From: Candidatus Humimicrobiaceae bacterium
Lineage (GTDB): Bacteria; Patescibacteriota; Minisyncoccia; Minisyncoccales; DG-74-1
Assembly: GCA_035530555.1 (NCBI GenBank)
Contig: DATKUR010000010.1
Coordinates: 1-62,762, forward strand
Direction of reading: 5' to 3'
DNA: 62,762 nucleotides
The notes below the pieces were generated by a model. It did not search any database. It was not told the origin of the DNA and was given only the letters and a program-made list of their open reading frames with translations. The translations under genes were made by a program, and so were the position numbers. Below, piece by piece: positions 15,911-55,851 of the stretch. Position 1 is the stretch's first letter, and each line of letters begins with the position of its first letter.

Positions 15911-15982
15911 TGGGCATGCCAGGGATTGAACCTGGGACTTCTACTTTATAAGAGTAGCGTTCTACCACTGAACTACATGCCC
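15911..15982 (-). tRNA. tRNA-Ile(TAT)
   Basis: Reverse strand GGGCATG/CATGCCC, CTACT-CTTATAA-AGTAG, A73. Confidence 0.9.
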
Positions 15983-40285: not shown

Positions 40286-40561
40286 ATGGTAAGACCATTA
40301 AAACCAAGAAAAGTATTATTTGATCCAAATGTGATATATTTCAAACCAAGAGCAGTTCCTCTTTCTATGTTAGAAGAAGTAGATTTGGGTATAGACGAGC
40401 TGGAAGCTTTACGCCTTTGCGATTATAAAAATTTGGAACAAACCGAAGCCGCAAAGAAGATGAAGATTTCCCAGAGTACCTTTCAGCGAATTTTAACCTC
40501 AGCCCATAAAAAAGTTGCTGAATCTCTAATTGAAGGTAAAGCGATAAAAATAATTAAATAG
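40286..40561 (+). CDS. DUF134-family putative DNA-binding protein
   Basis: MVRP.KPR, FKP, ELEALRL.D...Q.EAA..M.IS..TF.RIL..A. Confidence 0.9.
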   Translation: MVRPLKPRKVLFDPNVIYFKPRAVPLSMLEEVDLGIDELEALRLCDYKNLEQTEAAKKMKISQSTFQRILTSAHKKVAESLIEGKAIKIIK

Positions 40562-40575
40562 TTCTCATATAAATC

Positions 40576-40615
40576 AAAACAAAAAAGAACGATTCGCGTC
40601 GCTCTTTTTTGTTTT
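40576..40615. terminator. Bidirectional terminator-like IR at the metal cluster / island junction
   Basis: AAAACAAAAAAGA-A-CGA...TCG-C-TCTTTTTTGTTTT between convergent genes. Confidence 0.65.
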
Positions 40616-40616
40616 T

Positions 40617-41978
40617 CTATTCCTCGATTAAAGTAATTTTCTTGTCTTTATAATTCAGCCGGCTTCGCAAGTTTGCCAGCAGTTCGCGCTTGTCCGATAC
40701 ACTGCCTTCTTTTAATAAGTACTTGGCATATTGCCGGATATTTACATCGTCTTCCTCAACAAGCGCGTTGCCCGATTTTCCATTAACGATTTTCTGCAGT
40801 TTATTAAATCTTCTGATCTCATCCTCAAGTTTCTGCCTCATGCCTAATTCATTGATATTAACCTTGTCCATAATTTTTAAAAGTTCATCGATCAGTTCTT
40901 CTTCGCGAATGTATTTGTTTTTGCAGTTCCGATCCCTTGCCCGACTACAGCCGTAATAGATGTAATGCGCAGAAGTGCCGTCTTTAAGCGGTTTCCATTT
41001 TTCTTCGGCTGATATACCGGATCCGCAGTAACCGCAGGTAAATAATTTTGTAAAAGCAAATTCTTTATTTTCTCTGACTATTTGATCGCGTTTCAGTTGT
41101 GCTTGGGCTTTTTCAAACAATTCCTGCGTAATCAACGGCTGATGTTTACCTTGATACCAATTACCGCTTTCTCTTGGATATTCGAATGGCCCATAATAAA
41201 ACGTGTTATCAAGTATGCGGTAAACCCCCGAAAGCGTGAGCGGCTTATTTCCTCGTGTATGAAAATTAAGCTCAAACTTGAGCCAGTTATAAATTTTTCT
41301 GCCCGAATAATGTTCATAAGCCACTTTCTCAAACATTTTCTTTACCATTGGAGACCGTGCGGGATCAACCATAATCTGGCATTTCTTATCCATCAGTTTC
41401 TGATTAAGATACCCGAGCGGTGCTACTCCCGGCCATAATCCCATTTCGACTCTTGTCCGCAGTCCGCGTTTGACGTTAATACCCCTATTGTCGTTTTCAA
41501 GTTTTGCCTGCGATCCGAGAATCATTAAAAGGAATTTTTCATTCGGATTATTGCTGAATCTTTGACCGTAGGTGCGGATTTCCAAAAGCAGCTTTGCATC
41601 CATTAAATCCACTATCTTGCCGAGATCCCCGGCATTCCTTGAAATACGATCCGGTGCCCAGGTCAGAATGCCGTTAAACTTTCCCTGTTTTATTTCTTCG
41701 ACTATTTCATTGAAGATCGGTCGCTGGCCGGTTTCTTTTGCCGAGTGCGATTCGCGCTTGATCTCGGCGATATCAAGACCCTCTCGCTCAGCGAGCTGCA
41801 TCATCTCTTTGACCTGAGAATCAATGGAGAGGATTTGCCGTTCTTCACTTTCGGTCGATTTCCTTGCGTAGAGGCAGTATTTGATTTTGGTCGGCTGTAT
41901 TTGAGCAGTCTGCCCCTTGATACTCCCCAAGCCAGCCGTAAATGTTGTATTATTCATACAACACAATGGATGACGCAA
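40617..41978 (-). CDS. Large serine recombinase (start may be 41957)
   Basis: YARKST catalytic Ser, DRISR, APLGY recombinase domain, CGYC...C...C zinc ribbon. Confidence 0.93.
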   Translation of the reverse strand: MRHPLCCMNNTTFTAGLGSIKGQTAQIQPTKIKYCLYARKSTESEERQILSIDSQVKEMMQLAEREGLDIAEIKRESHSAKETGQRPIFNEIVEEIKQGKFNGILTWAPDRISRNAGDLGKIVDLMDAKLLLEIRTYGQRFSNNPNEKFLLMILGSQAKLENDNRGINVKRGLRTRVEMGLWPGVAPLGYLNQKLMDKKCQIMVDPARSPMVKKMFEKVAYEHYSGRKIYNWLKFELNFHTRGNKPLTLSGVYRILDNTFYYGPFEYPRESGNWYQGKHQPLITQELFEKAQAQLKRDQIVRENKEFAFTKLFTCGYCGSGISAEEKWKPLKDGTSAHYIYYGCSRARDRNCKNKYIREEELIDELLKIMDKVNINELGMRQKLEDEIRRFNKLQKIVNGKSGNALVEEDDVNIRQYAKYLLKEGSVSDKRELLANLRSRLNYKDKKITLIEE

Positions 41979-42045
41979 TCCTCAAAAGGAGTCCAGAGCG
42001 TCCCAGTTGGCAGACAGTTGATAACTTATTTCCGCAAAAACGCCA

Positions 42046-43365
42046 TCACATTATCGGGTTATCGTAGGGATCGAAGAAAATCTCTTTTTCTGGTGCCGCA
42101 TTGTCGTAAAAGCCGTAATCATTATCCATTTTATTCTCAACAAGAGCCGCATAGCGATGGACATCAGCGGCGTGCGAAGTCCAATTGTGATACGGAATCT
42201 CTCTGAACATATTTCTCTTATCATCCCACTCACGTTTGTATTCTGAAATTGCGTCAACCCACAGCGCGCATTTTTCTTTGTCTATCATTAGTCTGTCAAA
42301 CATAAATTTACCTATTTGAATTCCATCATCCACATTGGTTTTCGGATCAATAACACTGAATGGTAATCCAAGGTTTTTGGCAAAATCTATTCTTGCCTTT
42401 CCGGTGCTTGCTTCCCGAGCGTTTATATCGTGCGGCGCAAAGTGAGTTCCGTAGTTATACTCTTTTCGTCTTACAGCAGAAACCGCTTGATCGATTCCGT
42501 CATTTTCTGTTCCCTGCCAATAATCGATCATGTGTATTCTCGCCCCGATACGCTGATAAAATCCGATAGCCATCGCCGGTCCGACTCCAATATCCCAAAC
42601 CGTATGCACTTTGCACTCACGTTGCCACGGAACAGCGGTTATCCGGTTATCACTTCTTGCCCTTGCCAGTTCTTGCGCGTAAACCGCACCCTTTGCCGAA
42701 GAATTAAATGAACAGTAAAGTTCCTGCATAAATTCCTCTTGAGACATCGTTTTTCTCGAATTTTCTATTTCTTTCGGATCAATTACCCCGGTGTCATCCA
42801 CTGTCAGGTGGCAGGTAAACCATTCGCTGTCATTTTTATGTATTTCGTACAGAAAATAGAATTCGTTTCTGCCTTTTGGTGTTCCGATCCAGATTCCGTA
42901 TCCGCCATTTTCCAGAAGCGTCGGGCGGATTACTTCGGTAAAGATATTATTCGGTTGCATGCCGTATTCATCAAACACGACACCGCTTAACCCTATACCT
43001 CTCAGCCGATCCGGGTTTTCTGCGCCAAACAGTGTTATTTTTGACCCACCCGGAAAATTTACCGACAGTTCGGATTCTTTACATATCACACCTGGAAATT
43101 TCGTGTATCTTTTTAGTATGCCCCAGGCAACGCTTTTGGCCATTTTGTAGGTTGGGGCAATATATGCATACTTTGTGCCGGGTTTTTTAACCGCGTCGTA
43201 TACCAGATAATTCAACGCCGCAGTTGTTTTTCCGGCACGGCGATGCACCACAAGCACCATCCAGCGCTTGTCAGTTTCGTGAAATGGGATAGCCCATTTT
43301 CGCGGACTGTATAAACTTGGAAATTTGTCCATAATTTTAATTTTTCTGATTATGATTGAATTCAA
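42046..43365 (-). CDS. Phage terminase large subunit (start may be 43332)
   Basis: Walker A HRRAGKT, APT, Walker B VVFDE, IGTP coupling motif, nuclease WDIG and HAAD..RY. Confidence 0.9.
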   Translation of the reverse strand: MNSIIIRKIKIMDKFPSLYSPRKWAIPFHETDKRWMVLVVHRRAGKTTAALNYLVYDAVKKPGTKYAYIAPTYKMAKSVAWGILKRYTKFPGVICKESELSVNFPGGSKITLFGAENPDRLRGIGLSGVVFDEYGMQPNNIFTEVIRPTLLENGGYGIWIGTPKGRNEFYFLYEIHKNDSEWFTCHLTVDDTGVIDPKEIENSRKTMSQEEFMQELYCSFNSSAKGAVYAQELARARSDNRITAVPWQRECKVHTVWDIGVGPAMAIGFYQRIGARIHMIDYWQGTENDGIDQAVSAVRRKEYNYGTHFAPHDINAREASTGKARIDFAKNLGLPFSVIDPKTNVDDGIQIGKFMFDRLMIDKEKCALWVDAISEYKREWDDKRNMFREIPYHNWTSHAADVHRYAALVENKMDNDYGFYDNAAPEKEIFFDPYDNPIM

Positions 43366-43705
43366 CGTCTATAGGCGTAGTGATTTCAATCTTTGTTTTA
43401 TTGTATTTAGGGTGACGTTTTTCAAGCCGGTAATGAATTGCCGGCCAGAATTTTTCTTTTACCAATGATAACAGCTGATGTTCGCTCATATCATTGAAGA
43501 ATTCATCACCTTCGGCCATGGCTTCTTCGACCGCTTTGGCGAATCCCGGATCCTCGCTTCTCCAGCGGTAATAAGTGGCCTTTCCTATGCCTGCTTTTTC
43601 GCAGGCCAACAGCTGAATCGGATATTTCTTCAACTGTTCAAGCAAAATTTCTTTTTCTTTTGCCTGCCGTATTTTAATTGTTTTACGTTTTTTAGCGTTA
43701 TTCAT
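43337..43705 (-). CDS. HTH protein, putative terminase small subunit
   Basis: ACEKAGIGKATYYRW...DPGF HTH, AI.Y.L; directly upstream of TerL. Confidence 0.72.
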   Translation of the reverse strand: MNNAKKRKTIKIRQAKEKEILLEQLKKYPIQLLACEKAGIGKATYYRWRSEDPGFAKAVEEAMAEGDEFFNDMSEHQLLSLVKEKFWPAIHYRLEKRHPKYNKTKIEITTPIDVEFNHNQKN

Positions 43706-45020
43706 AAATTTTCTTTGGCTTTATGCCAGTTAATTTTATCCAGCGGTGAATTATCACCTCTGTGTATACTGGCGATTTCTCTATGACATAACAGCGTCGC
43801 TTCATTTTCTCGGCCGCAATCAAAGTACTTCCCGATCCGCCAAACGGTTCGACAATCAAGTCGCCGCGTTTGGTGAGTACCTTGATGTAGGGAATAAGAA
43901 TCTCGATCGGCTTTGTGCCGAACACAACTCCCTGTCCAGAATTTTTCTCGTCACCCGCTTTATATTCGATGAAATCAGTCGGACAGATTCTTTTGCCTTT
44001 TTCGTAGCCTTCCCATTGCGGCCTACCTGCAATGGCATACAGGGCAGTTTCGTATTCGCTCTGAAGTTCTTCTGCTTCCGGTTCAAGATTGAGCCGCATT
44101 TTCTTTGAGGTTCCGACCATGGCAATGTCGTGCTTCGAAAAGAATCTGTATTTTGCGGCAAATCCCTGCGTGCGATTAGGAAGATGCCAGACCAGCATGT
44201 TTTTTATCTTCCAGTATTTCTCAAGCTCGCCCCAAATAGTTCTAATATTCTTCCAATTTTCGTAAACAATAATATGGAAGTCCGGTTTGGCAATCTTTGC
44301 GATATTTGCCATCCACTTTTCGGTAAAGTCTGGCGGAAGAACATCGGTGCCAAGATATTTTCTGTTGCGCTTGAATCCGAATCCTGATCCCTTGCCCTTA
44401 TATTTGGTATGCAAATAATCCAAAATATATGGAGGGTCGGTAAAGCACATATCAGCTTTTTTGCCATTCATAAGCTTTACAATATTTGTCTGAATAGTTG
44501 AATCGCCGCACATGAGGCGATGTGTTCCCAGCTGATATACGTCGCCGTTTTTAACTGTGATGTTCTTGATATCCAGTTTTGCCAGTTCTTTCTCCAAATC
44601 AAATTCATCCGGTAGATCTTCAACCGCGAATATGTCATCCAGTTCTTCCGAAGAGAAACCGATATCTGCCAGAAACGATTCTTTGAAGTTTGTTAGTAAA
44701 TCCCAGTCAAACTCGCCGGTATTCTTATTGAGCCTCAGATTCAATTCCTTCTCCTTTTCAATATCGGGGATATTGAGATACACGACCGGTATCTCAGTAA
44801 TTCCGATTTCTTTGGCAATCGACAGACGGAAATGTCCGCCGATCACAACTCCTCTGCGTTCCGGTGAAAAATTTGCAATAATTGGATCAACAAAGCCGTA
44901 TTTTTTGATGCTGGCCTTAAGATGTTTTATTGCTTCTTTGTTCCACTTGCGCGGGTTGTATTCCGATGGACGAAGCTGATTTATCGGAACATAAACGATT
45001 TTTAAATTATTATTTGTCAT
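43698..45020 (-). CDS. ParB-like domain fused to N4/N6 DNA methyltransferase
   Basis: YNPRK, GFVDPI, GGHFRL; HRLMCGDST, TDPPY, EPFGGSGST. Confidence 0.9.
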   Translation of the reverse strand: MTNNNLKIVYVPINQLRPSEYNPRKWNKEAIKHLKASIKKYGFVDPIIANFSPERRGVVIGGHFRLSIAKEIGITEIPVVYLNIPDIEKEKELNLRLNKNTGEFDWDLLTNFKESFLADIGFSSEELDDIFAVEDLPDEFDLEKELAKLDIKNITVKNGDVYQLGTHRLMCGDSTIQTNIVKLMNGKKADMCFTDPPYILDYLHTKYKGKGSGFGFKRNRKYLGTDVLPPDFTEKWMANIAKIAKPDFHIIVYENWKNIRTIWGELEKYWKIKNMLVWHLPNRTQGFAAKYRFFSKHDIAMVGTSKKMRLNLEPEAEELQSEYETALYAIAGRPQWEGYEKGKRICPTDFIEYKAGDEKNSGQGVVFGTKPIEILIPYIKVLTKRGDLIVEPFGGSGSTLIAAEKMKRRCYVIEKSPVYTEVIIHRWIKLTGIKPKKIYE

Positions 45021-45059
45021 AACTATTTTCGGCGATTGTGTTAATTCTTAATTTTGTCT

Positions 45060-45305
45060 GCGTTGATTGATATCGACCACGGCATAAGGAGCCGCATCAA
45101 TCGGTAGAACAAAAAACAGGGAACGCAATGCGTTCCCCGGTGGTTTAAAATGAAAAAGTCCGAAAATCAAATTACCAAGAAAGCATTGCGGTGTTAAATG
45201 CAATGTTTGGCAATTTCATTTCCGGATTCTTTGCTGGCAATTTATATCCAGGTATAAATCCTGAAACCCTTAAAGTTAAGGCTTACCCTGTTTTTAATGT
45301 TCTGA
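45060..45305 (-). ncRNA. Structured 5' leader with terminator/antiterminator potential (candidate)
   Basis: Terminator GGGAACGC-ATT-GCGTTCCC-TGTTTTTT; long hairpin 45159-45226; 5' end complementary to the terminator 3' arm; TTGACA and TGnTATAAT just upstream (45313-45338). Confidence 0.55.
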
Positions 45306-45440
45306 CAATTGCATTATAGCATAGTTAAAGCATGTCAACAAGCCCTGTTGGTAACTCGCTTTACAATTCTGGTGGTTGAGCTAGGGTACAGTGGACGAAA
45401 GTGTCAAAAAGAAGTAAAATTTAAATATAATTTAATATCA

Positions 45441-45594
45441 GTCACCTAAACTTGCCATTTCGGCAGGCATGGTGCAAAAAACCCGTCAAAGGTACTAAGC
45501 TCGTCGTCAGAGCACCTTTGACGGGTCATATCCCGAAAGGGGTATGGGTAGCCGAAAGGCTATCGCTGGCGGCGAGCTTTGTGTTTTCCGCCAG
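45441..45594 (+). ncRNA. Five-hairpin structured RNA with 14-bp alternative pairing (candidate)
   Basis: 13-bp perfect stem, two GAAA-tetraloop stems, G-U pairs on the + strand, loop 45497-45510 complementary to 45566-45579. Confidence 0.65.
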
Positions 45595-45608
45595 AATAAC
45601 TAACTGAG

Positions 45609-45839
45609 ATGTATCTGAATATGGCGGAAAAAATTAAAGACTGGCTTAATAATAATTGGTTTAAAGCTATCAGTGCCATCGTTTTATTAACGATTGGCTT
45701 TTCTATTTTTTATTATTTCTTTTTGAGGCCGTATCAAAACGACAGACCCTACCGAGAATGTATAAAACAGATTGATCCTCGCGCCGATTTTAAAGATGTT
45801 AAATCTCTTTATTTTAATTGCCTCAATAGTTTTAGATAG
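45609..45839 (+). CDS. Small single-TM hypothetical protein
   Basis: One hydrophobic helix, two C-terminal Cys. Confidence 0.6.
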   Translation: MYLNMAEKIKDWLNNNWFKAISAIVLLTIGFSIFYYFFLRPYQNDRPYRECIKQIDPRADFKDVKSLYFNCLNSFR

Positions 45840-45845
45840 AAATGT

Positions 45846-46532
45846 ATGGCAAATAATCATTCAAAAATAAATCAAAAAGGTTTCATTCAAATACCAGTAC
45901 TTATAGCAATAATTACAGGACTTTTAATTGTCGGCGGAGTCGGCTATTTTGGCATAAAACAACATCAAAATAATCAAAATAAAAACAATAACGAAGAGAA
46001 ACAGCAAGAACTACAGGGCGATGTTGTTATGCCTGAAGGACCAACAGAAATTTCCGGAGAAGGATTTTACAGTATAACCTTGGAAACTAGCCCAAGCATA
46101 CAAAGAAGAGAAGCAACGTTCAGAATTAAATTAAAGAATTTGAATGTAGAACCATTTATTACAAATTTGGGAACGGACAGCTGTAATATTACTGATTCAA
46201 AAGGACAAAAATATCTCGCGGCTTTCACAAGCGAAATTAAGCTTAAAAAGGCATTGCTTCCCGGGGAAGAAATAGCGATTGATATCGCCAGACAAAGGCT
46301 GGGAACTTCTTTTATTCAAGAAGGAGAAATAGCCTGTGCAAAGGAAGGCGTTTATCCAAATGATTTAATCGATGGTAATTTTAAATGTATTTATAACAGT
46401 TCGGGGGAATGTGTTTGTGAAGATTTGGGAGATTTAAAAATTAATGATTGTATTTTCCGTATAACGACAGACGGCAAAATAGCATCTAATAACTGGGGTA
46501 AATATCCGCTGACGGTAACTATAGAAAAGTAA
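45846..46532 (+). CDS. Hypothetical protein with prepilin-like N-terminus
   Basis: QKG|FIQIPVLIAII class III-like signal; six Cys in the soluble domain. Confidence 0.65.
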   Translation: MANNHSKINQKGFIQIPVLIAIITGLLIVGGVGYFGIKQHQNNQNKNNNEEKQQELQGDVVMPEGPTEISGEGFYSITLETSPSIQRREATFRIKLKNLNVEPFITNLGTDSCNITDSKGQKYLAAFTSEIKLKKALLPGEEIAIDIARQRLGTSFIQEGEIACAKEGVYPNDLIDGNFKCIYNSSGECVCEDLGDLKINDCIFRITTDGKIASNNWGKYPLTVTIEK

Positions 46533-46555
46533 ATAACATATTCTTAATGATAAAC

Positions 46556-46581
46556 AAAAGCGCAGTATAAGTTGCGCTTTT
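46556..46581 (+). terminator. Intrinsic terminator
   Basis: AAAAGCGCAG-TATAAG-TTGCGCTTTT. Confidence 0.65.
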
Positions 46582-46727
46582 CTCTTACTTTTTTAATTAA
46601 TTGTGCTTTACACTATTATTAACCTATGCGGACAGGAAATAAAATAAAGAAATTTGTATCTTGACATCCCTATAATATTTTGATACTTATATAAGTAGTG
46701 ATATAATTTACACTAAATATTAAAAAT

Positions 46728-46958
46728 ATGGTGCAAGATACTAAAAAAGAGGATCGCGCCACTCGTTTTAAAAGGGTTGCGCAGAGAAGAACCGAGAATA
46801 TTCTTAATTCCCTTCGGGTTTTGGGTAATTGCTCAAATAAAAGTTCATATCAATATACCGATGAAGACGTAGTAAAAATTTTTAGGGCGATAGAAGAACA
46901 ATTACGTATAACAAAAATGAAGTTTCGTTCTTCTCGTCGCCAAAAATTTAGCTTATAA
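46728..46958 (+). CDS. Small basic helical protein (76 aa), unknown function
   Basis: RFKRVAQRRTENIL..L..LGN.SN...Y.Y...DV..IF; own promoter-like region, 16 nt from the next gene. Confidence 0.75.
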   Translation: MVQDTKKEDRATRFKRVAQRRTENILNSLRVLGNCSNKSSYQYTDEDVVKIFRAIEEQLRITKMKFRSSRRQKFSL

Positions 46959-46974
46959 ATATTAACCTTTAATT

Positions 46975-49554
46975 ATGGACTACAACAATAATAAAGAAAT
47001 ATTATTAAAACTACTATTATCTCAGACTTCTGATGAGATTGAAAAAATAGTTAATACGGAGCCATTTTTTAAAAATTGTGAATGGATTCCTTACGGTGGG
47101 AGATCAAATAATGTCGGTACAATCGAGGGTCAGATGCGAGATGCGGATAACGCGTTGATAGAAAAAATTACAAATTCAATTGACGCAATTTTAATGAGGC
47201 GTTGTTATGAAGAGGGCATTGATCCGAGAGATAAAACGAAAGCACCGAAATCGATGGCGGAAGCTCTAGAAAGATTTTTTGGCGGAAAAGAAAAAATAAG
47301 AGAAAAAAGATCGGAATTTGCAAAAGAATGGTTGCGGGTTACGGCCGAGGGAAAAAAAGACAGGCCTACAATTACGGTTATCGATAAAGGAGAGGGTCAA
47401 CAGCCAAACGAAATTAAAGAAACGATACTTAGTTTAAACAAAGATATAAAAGAAAAAATATCTTTTGTTTACGGCACATATAATCAAGGTGGCTCTAGCC
47501 CGTTAGGTTATGCTGGTAATTCCACGTCATACGATTTTAATTATTTACAATTGATATTATGCCGACGCGCCACAACAATTAAGGATAAAATTCGCGCCAA
47601 GAATTACGATTACTACGGTTTTTCTCTTGTCAGAAAAAAGTTTGACTACACCGCACAGAAATTTACTTACGAATATTTCGTTGAAAAAGATTCAAAAGAT
47701 ATATTTTCGTTCCCCTTTGATAAACCTATTAAAATTGATGATTATGATTTTTTGGAAGGGTGTCTAGTCAAACTATATGATTATCAACTCCCCCAGAGGG
47801 GTAATATTGTTTTTAGAGGTTTAAATGAATTTATTGAAAAGAAATTACCGGATGCCCCATTACCCATTTACCTTAAAGAATTAAGAGATTATAAGGGGGG
47901 TATTGATTATACTATCTTTGGCCTCCGTGAAAAATTGCTTAGAAAAGAAGATATTTTGAGAGAGGGATACCCGCAAAAATTGCCTATTGATCTTGGTGAG
48001 ATTGGGAAAAGAGAGATAGAAGTTTTTATTCTCCAACACAAAACTCAGGCCAGGGAAGATTTGAGCCCCTACATTGAGCAAACAATATCGGAAAAGATAT
48101 TTTTCATAAAAGACGGACTCGTCCTCCATACAGAGAACACGTCTTGGTTAAGAAACGAATGCGATCTTGTTGATCTTTCCCCCTACCTCTTCGCTTTTAT
48201 AGACATCTCAAATATCGATCCCCCTGTCGCTCAAATGCTTCATTCGGGTCGGGAAAAATTTAAAAATAACGCGACAACTCGTTTAGCTCTTGAAAGGCTT
48301 AAGATTTTCCTTAGTAATGAAACATTTAAAGAACTAGATGCTGAATACGGGCGTCTTTCCGTTGGATCGGAAAGCTCCTTCAAAGACGATACTTTACGCA
48401 AACAATTAATGAAAGATTTTGAAGCCCAACCGGAATTGAGAGAATTTTTTGAATTAGGAGAAGATATACCTACAAAAGAAGGCGAGGGAGAGAAACCGCT
48501 ACCACCCTACGAAGGCACTTATCTTCCAGAAAAATTTGAATTATTAGGATTAGATCCCCGAGAAGTAGAAGAAGGCTCTTATTGTAAAATTACTTTTAAT
48601 ACGGAAGCAGATGAAAGATTACTTGAAAGACGAGACGATCGAGGAGAGTATGATTGGGGAAAATCAGAGAAATTTCAGATTGCTTTTAGCTCATATAAAA
48701 GGGGTAAGCTAACCTTTCGGGTTGATCCCAACCGCGATACAGGGGCGCCCGTAGAAGAAGCTATTCTGTTTCATTTACGCGTGCCTTCAAAAAACATAGA
48801 ATTCAGTAAGCCGGTAACAATTATAGTGAAAGAGAAAGTACGATATATTGGTAAAGAATTTCCCTCGTTTTTCAAAAAGACGAAGGAATTGTTACATATT
48901 CCCTTAGGTTCGGAAAGAAAATTACATTTCGCTACAGACGTCGTAAATAATTATTTTGACAGACAGACTAGCCCGGGTAAACTAATTATTGAAAAACACG
49001 ATTTTCTTAACTTCGGAAATCCAAAATTAAAAGATGGAATTTTGGAGATAAGAGTCGGATATACTGGAGAAAAAATACAAAAAATTAATAATATCAAAAT
49101 AGCGATCGATGACAACATGCGGAATCATTTTGAGTTAATTATGCCTGTTGAGATTACTCCACCCGAAAGCGAGCCACAGCTTAAATTGCCAAAACCTATC
49201 ACTATTGAGAAGAAGAATTGGAGTAACGATACACCTCAATGGGATGAAAATTGTGTTGCTCGTATTCCTTCCTGGAAAGAATTAAAAACAATTAAAATTA
49301 ATATAGATGCGAAACCGTTCGATGAGTTGAAAAAGATGATTATAGCAGACCGAGATTCTGCGCGTGATCTCTTAATAAGACAGATTTATATAAATTCAGT
49401 ATGGATGTTTTTAGAGTTTAAAGATTTACAAGTTACATCAGCTGGTACCAATGGGAAAATAAAAGATCTCGACCCGAGGGAGGAGATCTTTGAAATGGGA
49501 ATTCGTGCAGCAACAAAAAATTCTCTCCAGAATATTAAAAAACTTCTACGTTAA
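46975..49554 (+). CDS. GHKL (MORC/MutL-like) ATPase with long uncharacterised C-terminus
   Basis: N box ALIEKITNSIDA, G1 box IDKGEG, G2-like GTYNQGGS. Confidence 0.75.
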   Translation: MDYNNNKEILLKLLLSQTSDEIEKIVNTEPFFKNCEWIPYGGRSNNVGTIEGQMRDADNALIEKITNSIDAILMRRCYEEGIDPRDKTKAPKSMAEALERFFGGKEKIREKRSEFAKEWLRVTAEGKKDRPTITVIDKGEGQQPNEIKETILSLNKDIKEKISFVYGTYNQGGSSPLGYAGNSTSYDFNYLQLILCRRATTIKDKIRAKNYDYYGFSLVRKKFDYTAQKFTYEYFVEKDSKDIFSFPFDKPIKIDDYDFLEGCLVKLYDYQLPQRGNIVFRGLNEFIEKKLPDAPLPIYLKELRDYKGGIDYTIFGLREKLLRKEDILREGYPQKLPIDLGEIGKREIEVFILQHKTQAREDLSPYIEQTISEKIFFIKDGLVLHTENTSWLRNECDLVDLSPYLFAFIDISNIDPPVAQMLHSGREKFKNNATTRLALERLKIFLSNETFKELDAEYGRLSVGSESSFKDDTLRKQLMKDFEAQPELREFFELGEDIPTKEGEGEKPLPPYEGTYLPEKFELLGLDPREVEEGSYCKITFNTEADERLLERRDDRGEYDWGKSEKFQIAFSSYKRGKLTFRVDPNRDTGAPVEEAILFHLRVPSKNIEFSKPVTIIVKEKVRYIGKEFPSFFKKTKELLHIPLGSERKLHFATDVVNNYFDRQTSPGKLIIEKHDFLNFGNPKLKDGILEIRVGYTGEKIQKINNIKIAIDDNMRNHFELIMPVEITPPESEPQLKLPKPITIEKKNWSNDTPQWDENCVARIPSWKELKTIKINIDAKPFDELKKMIIADRDSARDLLIRQIYINSVWMFLEFKDLQVTSAGTNGKIKDLDPREEIFEMGIRAATKNSLQNIKKLLR

Positions 49555-50867
49555 GGTTTTTCCATTACTAAAATATATTCGTATTGATATACTCTTTTCT
49601 TGTTTGGATTATCGATATTGGTGAATCTGCCATTCTCGGTATTTCTCCAAGGAGTAATTAATTTGTTTGAAACTTCGCGTTTAATAAATTTCACTGATTT
49701 AAATCCAATATTTTTCATTTGCTCAGCAGCAACTTGAGAATTGGTGATATGGCAACCTTGAAGGTTTGTATCTCCAATAATTATGCAAGCTTTGTGGTCT
49801 GGTTTTAATATCCTGAACATTTCGGCGAATGATTTATTCATATCGGAAAAATAATGAGCGACATTATTATAGACGCCGATATCTCGTTTTGAGAGTTGCG
49901 TAACGATCCTTTCAGCAACAGAACTATTCAGATTTTCCGATCGATGATTTTTCTTTAAACTTGTACCTATAAATTTTTTTCTGAAATTATTAAAGTTTTT
50001 TGCATAATTTTTCCACTTTTTGAAATATTTGTGATCGTTCCCAAACCATAATAATGAAAGTTGATGCAAGTCCGCATACTCGTAAGAAGTTACGTAGGGT
50101 GGGGAGGTGATAATCAAGTCTACAGAATTCGATAAGATCGGTAATTCTTTAGTTGAGTCACTGATTCGCATGGTTGTCTTTGCTCCAATTGTTCCTCTTT
50201 TTTCTAATAAAGAATAAAATTGATTATTTCTATTTATTATGGAACGCAAGTGGGGTAAAAAAATATCAATTGGTACGGGAATTGCTTTATTTGGATCTAC
50301 TTGAGGTTTTGTACTTTTCATAAGCCACCGGGAACAATTTTTTAAAATATGAGAAAAAGCACAGAGATAAAGTCGTCGTACCTTATAGTTTTTGATGGCC
50401 TTTATAGTAATATAAACTCGATTAAGCTCAGTAATTGTGGAGGTATCAAACCAGTAATTGAGCCTATCTATATTAATTGTGGGGGCTATAGACGGTGAGA
50501 GTTTATAGGTATTAATAAATTTATTTACCGAATTTTCTAGCGTTTTGGGCTTAATTGGTGTAATTTTAGCTTGCGTAATGAATTTAGCCACTGGGTTGAT
50601 GTCAAAACCATAACTCTTTCTACCAGCCAATTTTGCTTCTACGAGCGTTGTCCCACAACCTCCGAAGGGGTCAACTACTATATCCCCCTGTGAAGTATAT
50701 TCATTAATAAGTTTTTGGACGATTTGAGGGATGAACTTTGCAGGATACCTATGATAGCCGTGGGTTATGTAATTAGTTTCAGTTCTTAGCGAATCAGCAA
50801 AAGACCAGTCTTTATTTGGCCTTAGATTAACGAAAGATTTTGTGACATTGTCTATTACGGTTTGCAT
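49551..50867 (-). CDS. Site-specific DNA methyltransferase, N4-cytosine type
   Basis: YPAKF.P, DPFGGCGTT (motif I) before TSPPY (motif IV). Confidence 0.9.
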   Translation of the reverse strand: MQTVIDNVTKSFVNLRPNKDWSFADSLRTETNYITHGYHRYPAKFIPQIVQKLINEYTSQGDIVVDPFGGCGTTLVEAKLAGRKSYGFDINPVAKFITQAKITPIKPKTLENSVNKFINTYKLSPSIAPTINIDRLNYWFDTSTITELNRVYITIKAIKNYKVRRLYLCAFSHILKNCSRWLMKSTKPQVDPNKAIPVPIDIFLPHLRSIINRNNQFYSLLEKRGTIGAKTTMRISDSTKELPILSNSVDLIITSPPYVTSYEYADLHQLSLLWFGNDHKYFKKWKNYAKNFNNFRKKFIGTSLKKNHRSENLNSSVAERIVTQLSKRDIGVYNNVAHYFSDMNKSFAEMFRILKPDHKACIIIGDTNLQGCHITNSQVAAEQMKNIGFKSVKFIKREVSNKLITPWRNTENGRFTNIDNPNKKRVYQYEYILVMEKP

Positions 50868-50969
50868 ATTTCTACTCTTATTATACCGTTTTCAATGAAA
50901 TTAAGCCAAGTTTAATACGAAACCGAAGAAGATTTAATTAAATTAGTTAAAAAAATAAATTATTTTTCT

Positions 50970-52733
50970 ATGCTTTATTCTTATTGCCAAAATTGTGGTG
51001 TAAAGTCTACAAAATGTTTCCTGTCGAAAGCCGGTGATTTTTCTAAAAATTGCGAGAAAAGAACAGATGGAAATATTTCTGTTTGCCAGCAATGTAAAGA
51101 GTGTCTAGAAGGTAGCAAAGAAAGTATTGAAAAGATATTATTATCAAAACAAAAAAATAAGTTAATTTTAGGAGGACCAGGAACGGGTAAAACTTTTTTA
51201 TTTGGAAGCGTTATGAGAAACCTTCCAAAAGGCAATCGTGTTCTCGTAATAACATTTATAAATAATTTAGTAGACGATTTAGAGAAACAACTTATCAAAA
51301 TATCTGATCGCGATATTGAAACGAGAACTCTTCATGGATTTTCTAAGAATTTTCTTCTTAGTGAGATACGCCAATATGAATATTTTCCCGAGTTGCCGAA
51401 AATTATTGAACAGGACGCTTTTTTGTCTGGATTAAGTTTTAAAGAGAAAGACTTTGGCCGGGCATTCATAAATCTACAAAAAGAAAGTAAAGAAACGAAG
51501 TTTTACCTGCACAGATCAGAGTATTATTTCGCCGTCGGCCACGACGACGCTGTTTATAGGGTTTTTTGTCACCTTAACGAGAATAAAGAAACAATACCTC
51601 AATATTTCCAGGTTATAGTTGATGAGTATCAGGATTTTAATCTTCTAGAATCAAGTTTAATTGAATTGCTTGCCCAAAGAAATAATACAATAATCGCAGG
51701 TGACGACGACCAGGCGCTGTATCGTTTTAAATTTGCTTCCCCTGATTTTATTCGTAAACTTTATCAGGATCAGCAATTTGAAAAATTCTTTTTGCCTTTT
51801 TGTAGAAGATGTACTTCAGTTTTAGTAGAAGCTGCTAATGCTTTTATTTCTAATGCCAAGAAAAAAGGATTATTAAATAATAGGATAGAAAAAGAATTCA
51901 AATGTTATTGGCCAGATAAGTTTTTAGATAGTAAAAAATACCCATTTATATCTCTTGGGAAATTTTTTGCCGATTCTGTTGCTACAAAATATATTAAAGA
52001 AAAAATATTCTCAATTATTGAGGAAGAAAAAATCGAACCTAGTGAAAAAAATGAGCCAGAATTTTTAATCATTGGCCCGCCAAGAATATCTCATTATTTA
52101 CGAGATGTGAATGATAGCCTAATTAATGATAAAAGATTAGATCGTAATATTTTTGAAATTGAATTTAAAAAAGAATCTAAAAGGTTGTCAACGGATGATG
52201 GCTATAAATTTATCAAAGGAGATGCAAAATCAAATCTTGGTTGGAGAATAGTTATGTATAAAGATCCCGTTAGCTCTTCTCTGGAAAAAGATAAAGAAAT
52301 AATCCGCGAGAGTTCAAATGGTAAATTACTTATAGATCTCTTGCCAGAAGATTATATTAATAAACATAGGGAAAAAGCTAATAACATTTCTCCGGAAGAA
52401 ATTAAAGATCCCGATGAGATTATAAATAAAAAAATAAAAATTAAATTAACAACTTATCTTGGTGCTAAAGGCTTATCCGCTAACCACGTTTTTGTTTTAG
52501 GATTGGAAAACGGTATCTTCCCAAAAGATCCGAATAATATTTCTGATGATGAAGTTTGCCAGCTACTCGTCTTGCTTACGAGAGCGAGAAAGTCATTAAA
52601 CCTACTTTCTGTTAATAGATTTAATAAGAAAATTCGTCGACGGATAGACAGTCTTTCTGGTTTTATTTCCATGATTCCGAACCAATTTTTAAAGATTGAG
52701 AATACTACTAAAGCGTCCGATTTTAAAAGTTAG
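50970..52733 (+). CDS. UvrD/Rep-like SF1 helicase with Cys-rich N-terminus
   Basis: GGPGTGKT, ITF, TLHGF, VDEYQD, GDDDQALY, AKGL, TRAR. Confidence 0.88.
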   Translation: MLYSYCQNCGVKSTKCFLSKAGDFSKNCEKRTDGNISVCQQCKECLEGSKESIEKILLSKQKNKLILGGPGTGKTFLFGSVMRNLPKGNRVLVITFINNLVDDLEKQLIKISDRDIETRTLHGFSKNFLLSEIRQYEYFPELPKIIEQDAFLSGLSFKEKDFGRAFINLQKESKETKFYLHRSEYYFAVGHDDAVYRVFCHLNENKETIPQYFQVIVDEYQDFNLLESSLIELLAQRNNTIIAGDDDQALYRFKFASPDFIRKLYQDQQFEKFFLPFCRRCTSVLVEAANAFISNAKKKGLLNNRIEKEFKCYWPDKFLDSKKYPFISLGKFFADSVATKYIKEKIFSIIEEEKIEPSEKNEPEFLIIGPPRISHYLRDVNDSLINDKRLDRNIFEIEFKKESKRLSTDDGYKFIKGDAKSNLGWRIVMYKDPVSSSLEKDKEIIRESSNGKLLIDLLPEDYINKHREKANNISPEEIKDPDEIINKKIKIKLTTYLGAKGLSANHVFVLGLENGIFPKDPNNISDDEVCQLLVLLTRARKSLNLLSVNRFNKKIRRRIDSLSGFISMIPNQFLKIENTTKASDFKS

Positions 52734-52755
52734 TTATAACCATTTTAATATTTAA

Positions 52756-54294
52756 ATGAAAGAAAAGCTGGAAGAAGAAGTTAAAGGTATTTTTAAATTA
52801 GTAACCTCTTATGCGGTCGATTTTTTTGGCGCAAAAGATATTAGAGATATCCAAAGGATAGATAAAAATCTTTTTCGGCATAAATGTCATGAAGGTTTTT
52901 ATTTAGCTCAAGATAGGATTATTTCTAATTTATTAGAAATTGAAGAAGAATTAAAGAAATTAAAAAAACAAATAAAAGAATGTAAATCAGGAAAGGAAAC
53001 GGAAAAATTTGTTGCGGAAGAAAGTTACGATAAATTATTAGATGAGGAAGATATGCTAAGTAAAGAAGTCTTGCTTTTTAGGCGATTAGCCGATGTTATG
53101 GCTTGGACAATATTAAAAATGGATAAAATTTTGATCAGAAGCACTCAAACGGGAGAAGATTTTCATGGCTATCTATTAGATAAAAATATCGAATCACTTA
53201 TAGACGTTATTAACAAAACAAAAAATTTAGATGAGTTTATGCTGATCAATGATATAACGTTATGTTTAGGAAGCGGGGCGGGAGATTTAACCCGCGTGAG
53301 AAGGGGTGGTTTTGTTTTCTGTGAAGTAAAGGACGGAATTGTAAATAAAGAAATTTTTGATTATGTTAAACAAACAGGGAATTATATGAAAGAAAAAAAT
53401 ATCGAAATTCAAGACAAAAAAGATGTAGAGAATTTATTTAAGAATCGACCAAATCACGGAAACTTTATAAATAAATCCGCCTCGATATTTGATAATAAGA
53501 AAAAACGTGAACAATTTGAACGGATTTATAGACAATGGGAAAGAATGGGGAACGTTTTGGATTATCATAAAAGAGGCATTGGCTTTGATATCAGAAAAAC
53601 TAAAAGTGGACAAGAAACTGGCAGAATGAAAATTATGTCTGAGGCTAAAACTGCAGACGAATACTTTTTTAATATTATTGAAAAAGAGTTTCAATATTTA
53701 TCAACAATTAAGTCAGATTTTCATATTATAAATTTTGAAGAATTTTTATATTTTTTACTTTCAGATAATCAAAGGGGCACGGTTTTTAATATAAAGAATA
53801 GTAGGTGGGTAAGAAATAAAAATGCTCAACATTTATTATTTCACGCTATAAATAAAAATGATTGTAAGTACGTTACCGCGAAAACAGAAAAAGACTGGAA
53901 AGATGCATACGAAAAAGAATTATTAATTTATAAGGACTTATTTGTAATAAACTGGGCGGAGCAAATTCTGCGCGACGGTTCATTAAGGCCTCCTTATTTA
54001 TTTTCTTTCGATGAAAACTTAATTTTCGATCTATTATTTGAAAGAAAAAGTATATTTATTCATTTTGACTCAGATAAATTTATAGAATTTGTAAATTCAA
54101 TGGGGATTAGTTTTCTAGAAATGGAAAGAGTGGGTAAAATCACTCATGATTCCACAGACATTAAATTCAAAAGGCATAAAGAGGATAAACATAAAATCAC
54201 TATGGGGTGGGGCATGATTTTTAGAATGATGTTTGAATTTCAAGATCCCATTTCTTTCTTGGATCAAATCGTGGAAGTTTATAATCAAGAGTAA
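52756..54294 (+). CDS. Hypothetical protein, possible PD-(D/E)xK nuclease
   Basis: Long ORF; GDL...FCEVK resembles a D...ExK active site; N-terminal coiled coil. Confidence 0.55.
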   Translation: MKEKLEEEVKGIFKLVTSYAVDFFGAKDIRDIQRIDKNLFRHKCHEGFYLAQDRIISNLLEIEEELKKLKKQIKECKSGKETEKFVAEESYDKLLDEEDMLSKEVLLFRRLADVMAWTILKMDKILIRSTQTGEDFHGYLLDKNIESLIDVINKTKNLDEFMLINDITLCLGSGAGDLTRVRRGGFVFCEVKDGIVNKEIFDYVKQTGNYMKEKNIEIQDKKDVENLFKNRPNHGNFINKSASIFDNKKKREQFERIYRQWERMGNVLDYHKRGIGFDIRKTKSGQETGRMKIMSEAKTADEYFFNIIEKEFQYLSTIKSDFHIINFEEFLYFLLSDNQRGTVFNIKNSRWVRNKNAQHLLFHAINKNDCKYVTAKTEKDWKDAYEKELLIYKDLFVINWAEQILRDGSLRPPYLFSFDENLIFDLLFERKSIFIHFDSDKFIEFVNSMGISFLEMERVGKITHDSTDIKFKRHKEDKHKITMGWGMIFRMMFEFQDPISFLDQIVEVYNQE

Positions 54295-55605: not shown

Positions 55606-55851
55606 GGAGGAGTGCGGGAGCGGTTTATCCGGACGGTCTTGCTACGTACGAAAGCGGAGGGTTGGCTGAGTGGTTTAAAGCGCTGGTCTTGAAAACCAGT
55701 TGGGGAGCAATCCCCTCGGAGGTTCAAATCCTCCACCCTCCGCTTTCTGACGGGGTCTACGGAAAAACCTTTGAGTTTATGATTATATTTAGTTTGAATT
55801 TTACCCCGTAGGGAATCGAAGATTCTCCTTCGGGGCTTACCCCCCCCGCCA
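55606..55851 (+). pseudogene. Split, decayed tRNA-Ser enclosing an intact tRNA-Ser(TGA)
   Basis: Canonical 5' half 55606-55641; degenerate 3' half from about 55762 ending CCCCCCCGCCA. Confidence 0.55.
55656..55742 (+). tRNA. tRNA-Ser(TGA)
   Basis: GGAGGGT/ACCCTCC, CTGGT-CTTGAAA-ACCAG, long variable arm, G73. Confidence 0.93.

Follow-up and report, generated by a model that had tools for sequence, protein, structure and literature searches.

A conserved three-gene cassette pairing an unnamed GHKL ATPase with a convergent methylase, a candidate restriction-modification layout from a Patescibacteriota genome

Organization and conservation of the cassette

The contig DATKUR010000010.1 of a Candidatus Humimicrobiaceae bacterium (assembly GCA_035530555.1), analysed over 62,762 nucleotides (nt; positions 1 to 62,762) and referred to here as the window, carries a three-gene cassette of about 4.2 kb. 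It comprises open reading frames for a candidate controller protein of 76 amino acids (aa; 46728-46958, + strand), a GHKL ATPase of 859 aa (46975-49554, + strand) and a methylase of 438 aa (49551-50867, - strand) whose gene converges on that of the ATPase. The cassette is real, conserved and previously undescribed within the literature covered, where no published description of it was found (most subscription papers lie outside that literature). In the preferred reading, held with a confidence somewhat below even, this conserved cassette of ultra-small bacteria is mobile and arranged like a type II restriction-modification (R-M) system under a controller, the position of the endonuclease being taken by an unnamed GHKL ATPase that probably acts as a methylation-gated DNA clamp against invaders. 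Because an ATPase without recognisable nuclease takes the place of the cutting enzyme in an R-M layout, defence against foreign DNA likely proceeds by a route other than simple cutting.

The small gene and the ATPase gene are separated by 16 nt. A bidirectional terminator-like hairpin (46556-46581) divides the cassette from the upstream gene for a 228-aa protein, and two sigma70-like promoters 19 bp apart precede the small gene (46661-46707, + strand). For the first, a -35 box TTGACA could be read from the sequence at 46661; the second, TTGATA-16-TATAAT with an extended -10 element (46680-46707), is the best promoter match of the region. The gap, the hairpin and the promoter together point to co-transcription of the two genes. 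A promoter-like site for the methylase, TTGGCT-18-TATAAT, lies at 50880-50909 on the - strand. The stop codons of the ATPase and methylase genes share one TTAA at 49551-49554, as the initial annotation of this DNA had noted. This overlap is a family trait, seen in 55 of 64 loci; its length is exactly 4 nt in 31 of them.

Conservation was followed in 99 near-clade loci (19 from genomes and the best 80 of 99 from metagenomes, 34-93% identity, not dereplicated); ten distant genome loci were kept out of these counts. The small gene lies directly upstream of the ATPase gene in 93 of the 98 loci with enough DNA. The proposed association of ATPase and methylase was borne out: a convergent methylase gene is adjacent in 66 of 74 testable loci, including one (L072) whose ATPase ends at 518 aa, before the immunoglobulin-like (Ig-like) repeats described below. 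The same methylase family is found upstream and divergent in four of the eight exceptions (L033, L076, L084, L085) and 1.4 kb further away in L083. The remaining three (L071, L079, L098) have a BsaWI-family endonuclease and other methylases, that of L098 recognised by visible motif only. As all eight exceptions thus still carry a methylase, one is nearby in 74/74 testable loci. All three cassette genes are under purifying selection (nonsynonymous divergence about 0.14, synonymous divergence saturated), and this strong selection together with the near-invariant gene order argues against chance linkage. Clustering of all neighbours revealed no fourth conserved gene in the 99 loci: recombinases occur in 27, every other cluster in at most six.

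These counts bear on an alternative that is considered unlikely. Like MutL, the ATPase would there assist by looping DNA or by switching on a distinct nuclease, encoded either by a variable neighbouring gene or at some other place in the genome. The cassette of three genes would then represent the paraMORC model, put forward by Iyer et al. (PMC2292703; this and the other papers cited here are represented by the parts of their texts that were available), reduced to a core that has no nuclease. The BsaWI-family endonuclease in 3/74 testable loci speaks for this alternative, as do HNH genes beside L084 and L085, the EVE-domain gene in L072, the two inserted genes in L083 and the C5 methylases with Vsr or HNH adjoining the distant loci L023, L025 and L028. 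Against it, no fourth gene recurs beyond the recombinases and the small clusters (unlinked host nucleases were not searched for), the stop overlap leaves no space for an inserted gene in 55/64 loci, and the UvrD-like neighbour of the window cassette was matched by tblastn in only 1/99 loci.

Another alternative, judged very improbable, holds that the cassette serves the mobile element itself, through addiction, silencing or DNA handling, or that its methylase is an orphan and the function of its ATPase unrelated. Layouts of the R-M type are able to work as addiction modules, serine recombinases are nearby in the 27 loci mentioned above, and the window has terminase and ParB-methylase genes. 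However, terminase relatives occur in only 2-3 of the 99 loci, with flanks otherwise unrelated, neither viral contigs nor 50,697 phage records yielded a match to the ATPase, and the purifying selection and constant gene order also tell against this explanation.

Several single loci show further arrangements. In L043, L044 and L050, an extra conserved gene for 71-76 aa with no family match lies between the ATPase and methylase genes, co-oriented with the former; in L043 the cassette stands between two inverted copies of a recombinase gene, like a composite transposon. The truncated ATPase of L072 (L072:5844-8447) faces the EVE-domain gene, inserted before the methylase. In L071, L079 and L098 the ATPase gene is embedded among the BsaWI-family endonuclease gene and one or two methylase genes.

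Distant members of the ATPase family have varied surroundings. One adjoins an N6/N4 methylase, and a proteobacterial member converges on an SPPY methylase at a distance of 5 nt. Others lie beside HATPase_c_3 kinase-like genes and HNH genes, and for some the DNA viewed holds no gene for DNA modification. In 3 of 6 plasmid records viewed, the family occurs beside phosphorothioation-type genes (DUF4007, PAPS reductase, DUF262). In these plasmids (L110, L111, L112) the ATPase relatives lie within or beside phosphorothioation-type clusters that also include SIR2, a context which suggests that the ATPase family pairs with different DNA marks.

The GHKL ATPase

The ATPase shows the Bergerat-fold motifs of the GHKL superfamily (ExxxN, DxGxG, a glycine-rich lid and a fourth motif) followed by an S5 domain. 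The motif residues E63/N67/D70, D137-G139-G141, G167/G172 and G262 are invariant in 40 near relatives, and regular expressions for the first three groups together with R426 matched 74/74 full-length near-clade members. R426 is also invariant in 60 diverse members. S5 domains usually contribute a basic residue of this kind (PMC2292703), and R426 could be this basic finger.

The AlphaFold2 model of the protein (predicted local distance difference test, pLDDT, 83.5) contains GHKL and S5 transducer domains, a disordered acidic linker, two beta-sandwiches and an end domain. The predicted domains comprise an N-terminal arm (residues 1-56), the GHKL domain (about 57-270), the S5 transducer with R426 (about 271-465), the acidic linker (466-507), two Ig-like repeats (508-620 and 621-735) and an alpha/beta plus helical end domain (736-859) of short strands and three long helices. 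For the N-terminal half of the model, the structural matches included TRAP1 (Z 15.7, root-mean-square deviation (rmsd) 4.8, 298 residues aligned), MORC2 (Z 12.9, rmsd 3.9, 312 aligned) and SMCHD1 (Z 12.7, rmsd 5.6, 332 aligned). GRP94 and HtpG were also among its neighbours, and topoisomerases and MutL scored lower, at Z about 11. Residues 516-727 matched Ig-like domains (Z about 8). The two similar Y.G...P..F segments pointed out in the initial annotation proved to be a true internal duplication (hhalign 97.6%, E 4e-12), each copy being predicted to form an Ig-like beta-sandwich.

No nuclease motif could be found in the long C-terminal part, in sequence or fold comparisons, in agreement with the initial annotation. 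The cryptic nuclease that it had offered as an option found no support: conserved polar residues are few, and no clear fold match emerged for the end domain. C-terminal to residue 480, polar residues with a conservation of at least 70% in the broad family are limited to T519, T543, D544, R552, N776 and D778, among which no nuclease pattern was seen. A loose PD-(D/E)xK regular expression matched nearly everything and was discarded. The C-terminal domains vary more than the ATPase part (0.42-0.47 vs 0.61). Folded alone, the end domain is mainly helical (pLDDT 87.9). Foldseek gave no match for it at E<0.001, the HtpG C-terminal domain appearing at rank 18 with E 3, and the best VIA match was to an unrelated protein (Z 5.4, rmsd 4.1, 89 aligned). 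A role as an Hsp90-type dimerisation domain was not confirmed by Foldseek, VIA or profile comparison, and the Hsp90 family PF00183 had no match in the ATPase or in 60 sampled members.

Searches of PADLOC, Pfam, NCBIfam and PHROGs gave no name for the ATPase and matched the cassette to no described system. Its profile had no sequence match in the PDB, and an Atlas search returned unnamed clusters only. Among the 60 diverse members, eight weakly match HATPase_c_3, PADLOC and NCBIfam gave only scattered weak matches, and none carries the name of a defence system. Fused forms in the range of 1,529-4,365 aa did not turn up, a negative result of little weight. The broad family, clustered at 50% identity, has no fewer than 1,810 clusters (E<=0.001), and named relatives of the ATPase are mostly Patescibacteria. 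Of the earlier interpretation, the MORC/MutL-like ATPase, its strict link with a methylase, the lack of a visible nuclease and the lack of a described counterpart in the libraries searched are supported, and the cryptic nuclease is not.

The methylase and exchange of ATPase alleles

In the methylase, motif I (DPFGGCG) precedes TSPPY. The protein matches Pfam N6_N4_Mtase and, in PADLOC, MTase_II (E 1e-51). From the order of the motifs and the SPPY sequence, we take it to be an N4-cytosine methylase of the alpha arrangement. It is 38% identical to the methylase encoded upstream of the BsaWI-type endonuclease in L071, and a methylase encoded on a Geobacillus plasmid, 28% identical, belongs to an ordinary system where its gene converges on that of an MvaI/BcnI endonuclease; relatives of the methylase thus serve ordinary R-M systems. 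The specificities of these BsaWI-type and MvaI/BcnI relatives allow us to presume, as a weak guess, a target of the CC-GG type. Site avoidance in the host genome and in the cassette genes did not reveal a target.

The ATPase and the methylase have diverged to very different degrees. In 48 dereplicated pairs the median identity was 71% for methylases and 40% for ATPases, and the two trees are incongruent (Spearman 0.20). In one example, ATPases 37% alike accompany methylases 85% alike. The window cassette itself shares 79% of its ATPase and 57% of its methylase with L031, and 40% and 76%, respectively, with L086. Since methylases are far more alike than ATPases and the trees are discordant, the comparison indicates that ATPase alleles are swapped against a stable methylase.

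The small protein and its putative operator

The 76-aa protein is basic, with 19 lysine or arginine residues and 9 aspartate or glutamate residues. The libraries searched gave neither a name nor a helix-turn-helix (HTH), Xre or controller (C) protein match, and PDB matches stayed at chance level. The C proteins of R-M systems are HTH proteins.

Tandem promoters about 19 bp apart recur upstream of the small gene in related loci, and so does a tandem palindrome, CCTTRYAAGG-N9-CCTTRYAAGG. Allowing up to six mismatches, this box is present in 23 of 52 dereplicated upstream regions (from 75), compared with a mean of 0.87 and a maximum of 3 in 30 rounds of shuffling and 1/391 in host-gene controls; as the consensus was drawn from the same kin sequences, the counts show a real conserved element and are not a probability. 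The local form of the box in the window is a perfect 14-bp palindrome (46684-46697) within the spacer of the second promoter. Before the methylase gene the tandem palindrome was found in 0/45 regions. Covariation between residues of the small protein and the box was only impressionistic. This anatomy points to a small protein that binds the tandem palindrome over its own promoters.

The small-protein family occurs in 13 of 401 genomes of the phylum, of which only 3 carry the ATPase family of the cassette. In the other ten, the small gene precedes a different GHKL gene in six by Pfam match and in three by visible motif only, and none in one. With nine of these ten genomes agreeing, the small gene tracks GHKL domains and not endonucleases. 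It also precedes a GHKL gene in 1/6 viral loci and, in the 8 of 11 plasmid records viewed, a gene with a weak HATPase_c_3 match in two and the PADLOC candidate PDC-M33A in three.

This distribution lends weight to a third alternative, thought to be quite unlikely. The working unit would then consist of the small protein and the ATPase, the latter resembling Hsp90 and acting as a sensor or toxin, either by binding a phage protein or by arresting the cell, and being directly inhibited by the former; the methylase would travel along to shield the mobile element or the host. Besides the small genes that lead other GHKL genes and PDC-M33A, the Hsp90-family proteins among the best fold matches and the reassortment of the modules are consistent with it. 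However, each of the 74 testable near-clade loci has kept a methylase, rearranged ones included, the palindromic box over the promoters points to transcriptional control, no effector domain was found, and profile similarity to HtpG is negligible (probability 2%).

Some further observations were made on the small-gene operons. Across L132-L143, L145 and L150-L157 the small-protein family leads several unrelated GHKL operons, including PDC-M33, which is not named in the available main text of the PADLOC embedded-systems preprint. One such operon lies in an inovirus-like viral contig, and the operons are often accompanied by a divergent C5 methylase and Vsr. In L161 (8863-10275), LexA DNA-binding and S24 peptidase domains are fused to an N6/N4 methylase encoded divergently from a small-gene/GHKL operon.

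Proposed mode of action

In the preferred reading of a methylation-gated clamp, the methylase would, judging from its family, place N4-methylcytosine on host DNA at a single short site, which the clade probably shares. The 76-aa protein would bind the tandem palindromes over its tandem promoters and, as C proteins do, delay or limit production of the ATPase after the cassette enters a new host. The ATPase, given its predicted fold, would form a homodimeric ring, in which the C-terminal helices would join and ATP would close the GHKL domains; R426 would serve as the basic finger of S5, and the Ig-like arms would lengthen the ring. More speculatively, the ring could close on unmethylated incoming DNA and trap or compact it in the manner of MORC proteins, and such trapping might block replication or expression of the invader without a built-in cut.

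Several findings weigh against this reading. No HTH match was obtained for the small protein, in contrast to C proteins, and the tandem match of the window itself is weak, with 7 mismatches to the consensus, which was taken from the same, related loci as were counted. Of eight extended small-gene/GHKL loci, four have a methylase and four have none in the 9-10 kb fetched, and the distant loci L021, L022, L113, L115 and L166 are among those with no methylase beside the ATPase. The ATPase has no strongly basic domain (net charge -6 to +5) and no visible DNA-recognition domain. The discordance between the trees of ATPase and methylase can be explained by a methyl site in common, but equally well by an ATPase that ignores the mark.

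A more far-reaching form of the proposal is fairly doubtful. It would amount to non-cutting restriction, in which methylation marks self, a clamp of the MORC/Hsp90 type entraps and silences unmethylated DNA, and a new class of non-HTH controllers serves many GHKL defence operons. If true, eukaryotic MORC silencing would have in this cassette a minimal counterpart among bacteria, one in which the methyl mark stays fixed and the ATPase alleles are exchanged.

A role of prokaryotic MORC-like ATPases in R-M was predicted in 2008 (PMC2292703), and a paper of 2021 described the biochemistry of prokaryotic MORCs as still poorly understood (PMC8011034). Whether a GHKL clamp can discriminate between DNA with and without methylation, and halt an invader that it does not cleave, is the question posed by the cassette, and one relevant to how MORC and SMCHD1 silencing originated. 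The cassette represents the large unnamed family described above, and its compact, nuclease-less three-gene form can easily be synthesised and tested. The operator-like palindromes, the small gene leading other GHKL operons and the swapping of ATPase alleles are new with respect to the initial annotation. The small protein and its box are a possible marker or bait for further GHKL defence operons.

The genomic island

The cassette lies in an AT-rich island (40570-54294; left edge near 40570, right edge approximate) of a host genome of 643 kb in 16 contigs. The island carries a serine recombinase, terminase genes, a ParB-methylase, a LOOT RNA, the cassette, a UvrD-like helicase and a 512-aa protein of unknown function; the recombinase, terminase and ParB-methylase genes lie on one side of the cassette, the genes of the helicase and the 512-aa protein on the other. 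A relative from the same genus has other genes directly after the one that ends at 40561 in the window. The ATPase family was found in 4 of the 401 genomes of the phylum, the source genome included, and cassette DNA was absent from 30 relatives apart from chance matches of about 26-37 bp. From this rarity, this absence and the position in the island, it follows that the cassette is sporadic and mobile. No empty site or excision joint of the cassette was found in contigs of four DNA runs.

The serine recombinase, the large and small terminase subunits and the ParB-fused methylase form one operon (40570-45020), with which no capsid or portal gene was found among the open reading frames examined. 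In a same-order genome the recombinase-terminase part recurs at 82% with the same starting point. A short inverted repeat near the left edge (40576-40615) may be an attachment end. The LOOT RNA motif (45443-45564, + strand; Rfam RF03000, 94 bits against a gathering threshold of 46.4) sits between the ParB-methylase gene and genes for membrane proteins, and LOOT-like stretches recur in several related genomes and contigs.

To the right of the cassette (50970-54294, + strand), the UvrD-like helicase has an N-terminal cysteine cluster and GajB as its best PADLOC match (E 3.5e-26); the 512-aa protein that follows has no family match, and the pair is a possible second defence module. Both were considered as components of the cassette and rejected, in view of the neighbour clustering and of the single tblastn match of the helicase among the 99 loci. 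The window contains 18 tRNA genes (9356-33515 and 55656-55743), including a tRNA-Ile with a TAT anticodon (15911-15982) and a tRNA-Ser(TGA) near the right side of the island.

Comparison with known systems

Among controller-type R-M systems, Esp1396I has CR and M units that converge, its CR promoter carries operators for both activation and repression, and its C protein also binds the methylase promoter (PMC2691842); AhdI likewise has convergent units (PMC2275141). The cassette resembles both in the small leader co-oriented with the effector, the convergent (or divergent) methylase and the tandem palindromes over the leader promoter. In contrast to both, its effector is an 859-aa ATPase and not an endonuclease, and its leader has no HTH or Xre match; unlike in Esp1396I, no box was found at the methylase promoter. 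Of the components of such a system, the methylase was recognised by library matches, and neither an endonuclease nor an HTH C protein was identified. A restriction endonuclease gene is absent from the window cassette and from the family core, the BsaWI type occurring in 3/74 loci.

In its modelled fold, the combination of GHKL and transducer domains is shared with Hsp90/TRAP1/HtpG, MORC2 and SMCHD1 (Z 12.7-15.7). However, identity to Hsp90, MORC2 and SMCHD1 in the structural alignments is 10-16%, profile matches to HtpG and MutL reach only 2-6% probability, and the end domain was not matched at significance to the Hsp90 C-terminal domain. GHL proteins in general have an N-gate closed by ATP and dimerise at the C-terminus (bioRxiv 10.64898/2026.09.30.754977), and eukaryotic MORCs are described as entrapping and compacting DNA.

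The defence proteins VcSduA (paraMORC3/Shedu; PMC12137116) and Tiamat (bioRxiv 10.64898/2026.09.30.754977) both need ATP hydrolysis for defence and have a C-terminal PD-(D/E)xK nuclease. The cassette ATPase has in common with them the N-terminal GHKL ATPase and a predicted defence context, and differs in having no nuclease and in its obligate methylase partner.

The paraMORCs were predicted, with prokaryotic MORC, as GHKL-S5 ATPases of R-M operons (paraMORC1-5; PMC2292703). The MORC S5 motif GhXhhpXXRhl was found in 0/40 near and 0/60 diverse members, so the family is not MORC by this test, and no helicase cluster typical of MORC neighbourhoods recurs among the 99 loci. The paraMORC2 signature ExxxH in the C-terminal part of S5 (2/40 and 9/60) and the HxH of paraMORC5 in the C-terminal domain (3/40 and 7/60) do not characterise the family either. 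For the PD-(D/E)xK tail of paraMORC3/VcSduA (DUF4263), no Pfam, PADLOC or NCBIfam match was obtained in 60 members, and the family has no conserved acidic-lysine set; for the TIR domain of paraMORC4, 60 members gave no Pfam match and the model topology is not Rossmann-like. paraMORC1 is described with intact motifs, a distinct C-terminal extension, MORC, methylase and HNH neighbours and no helicase (PMC2292703). By description only, this fits the ATPase family loosely, and the family may belong to paraMORC1.

The cassette differs from paraMORC operons in that its core has no superfamily 2 (SF2) helicase, Z1 or endonuclease partner, and from paraMORCs in the two Ig-like repeats, the N4C-type methylase partner and the dedicated leader gene with operator-like boxes. 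It shares with paraMORCs the GHKL and S5 domains with intact motifs, a conserved C-terminal extension, sporadic and mobile distribution and methylase neighbours, and distant members of the ATPase family lie near C5 methylases, Vsr, HNH and HATPase_c_3 kinase-like genes, as paraMORCs do. By this analysis, the predicted mode of action of the cassette is most like that of the paraMORC-containing R-M operons predicted in PMC2292703.

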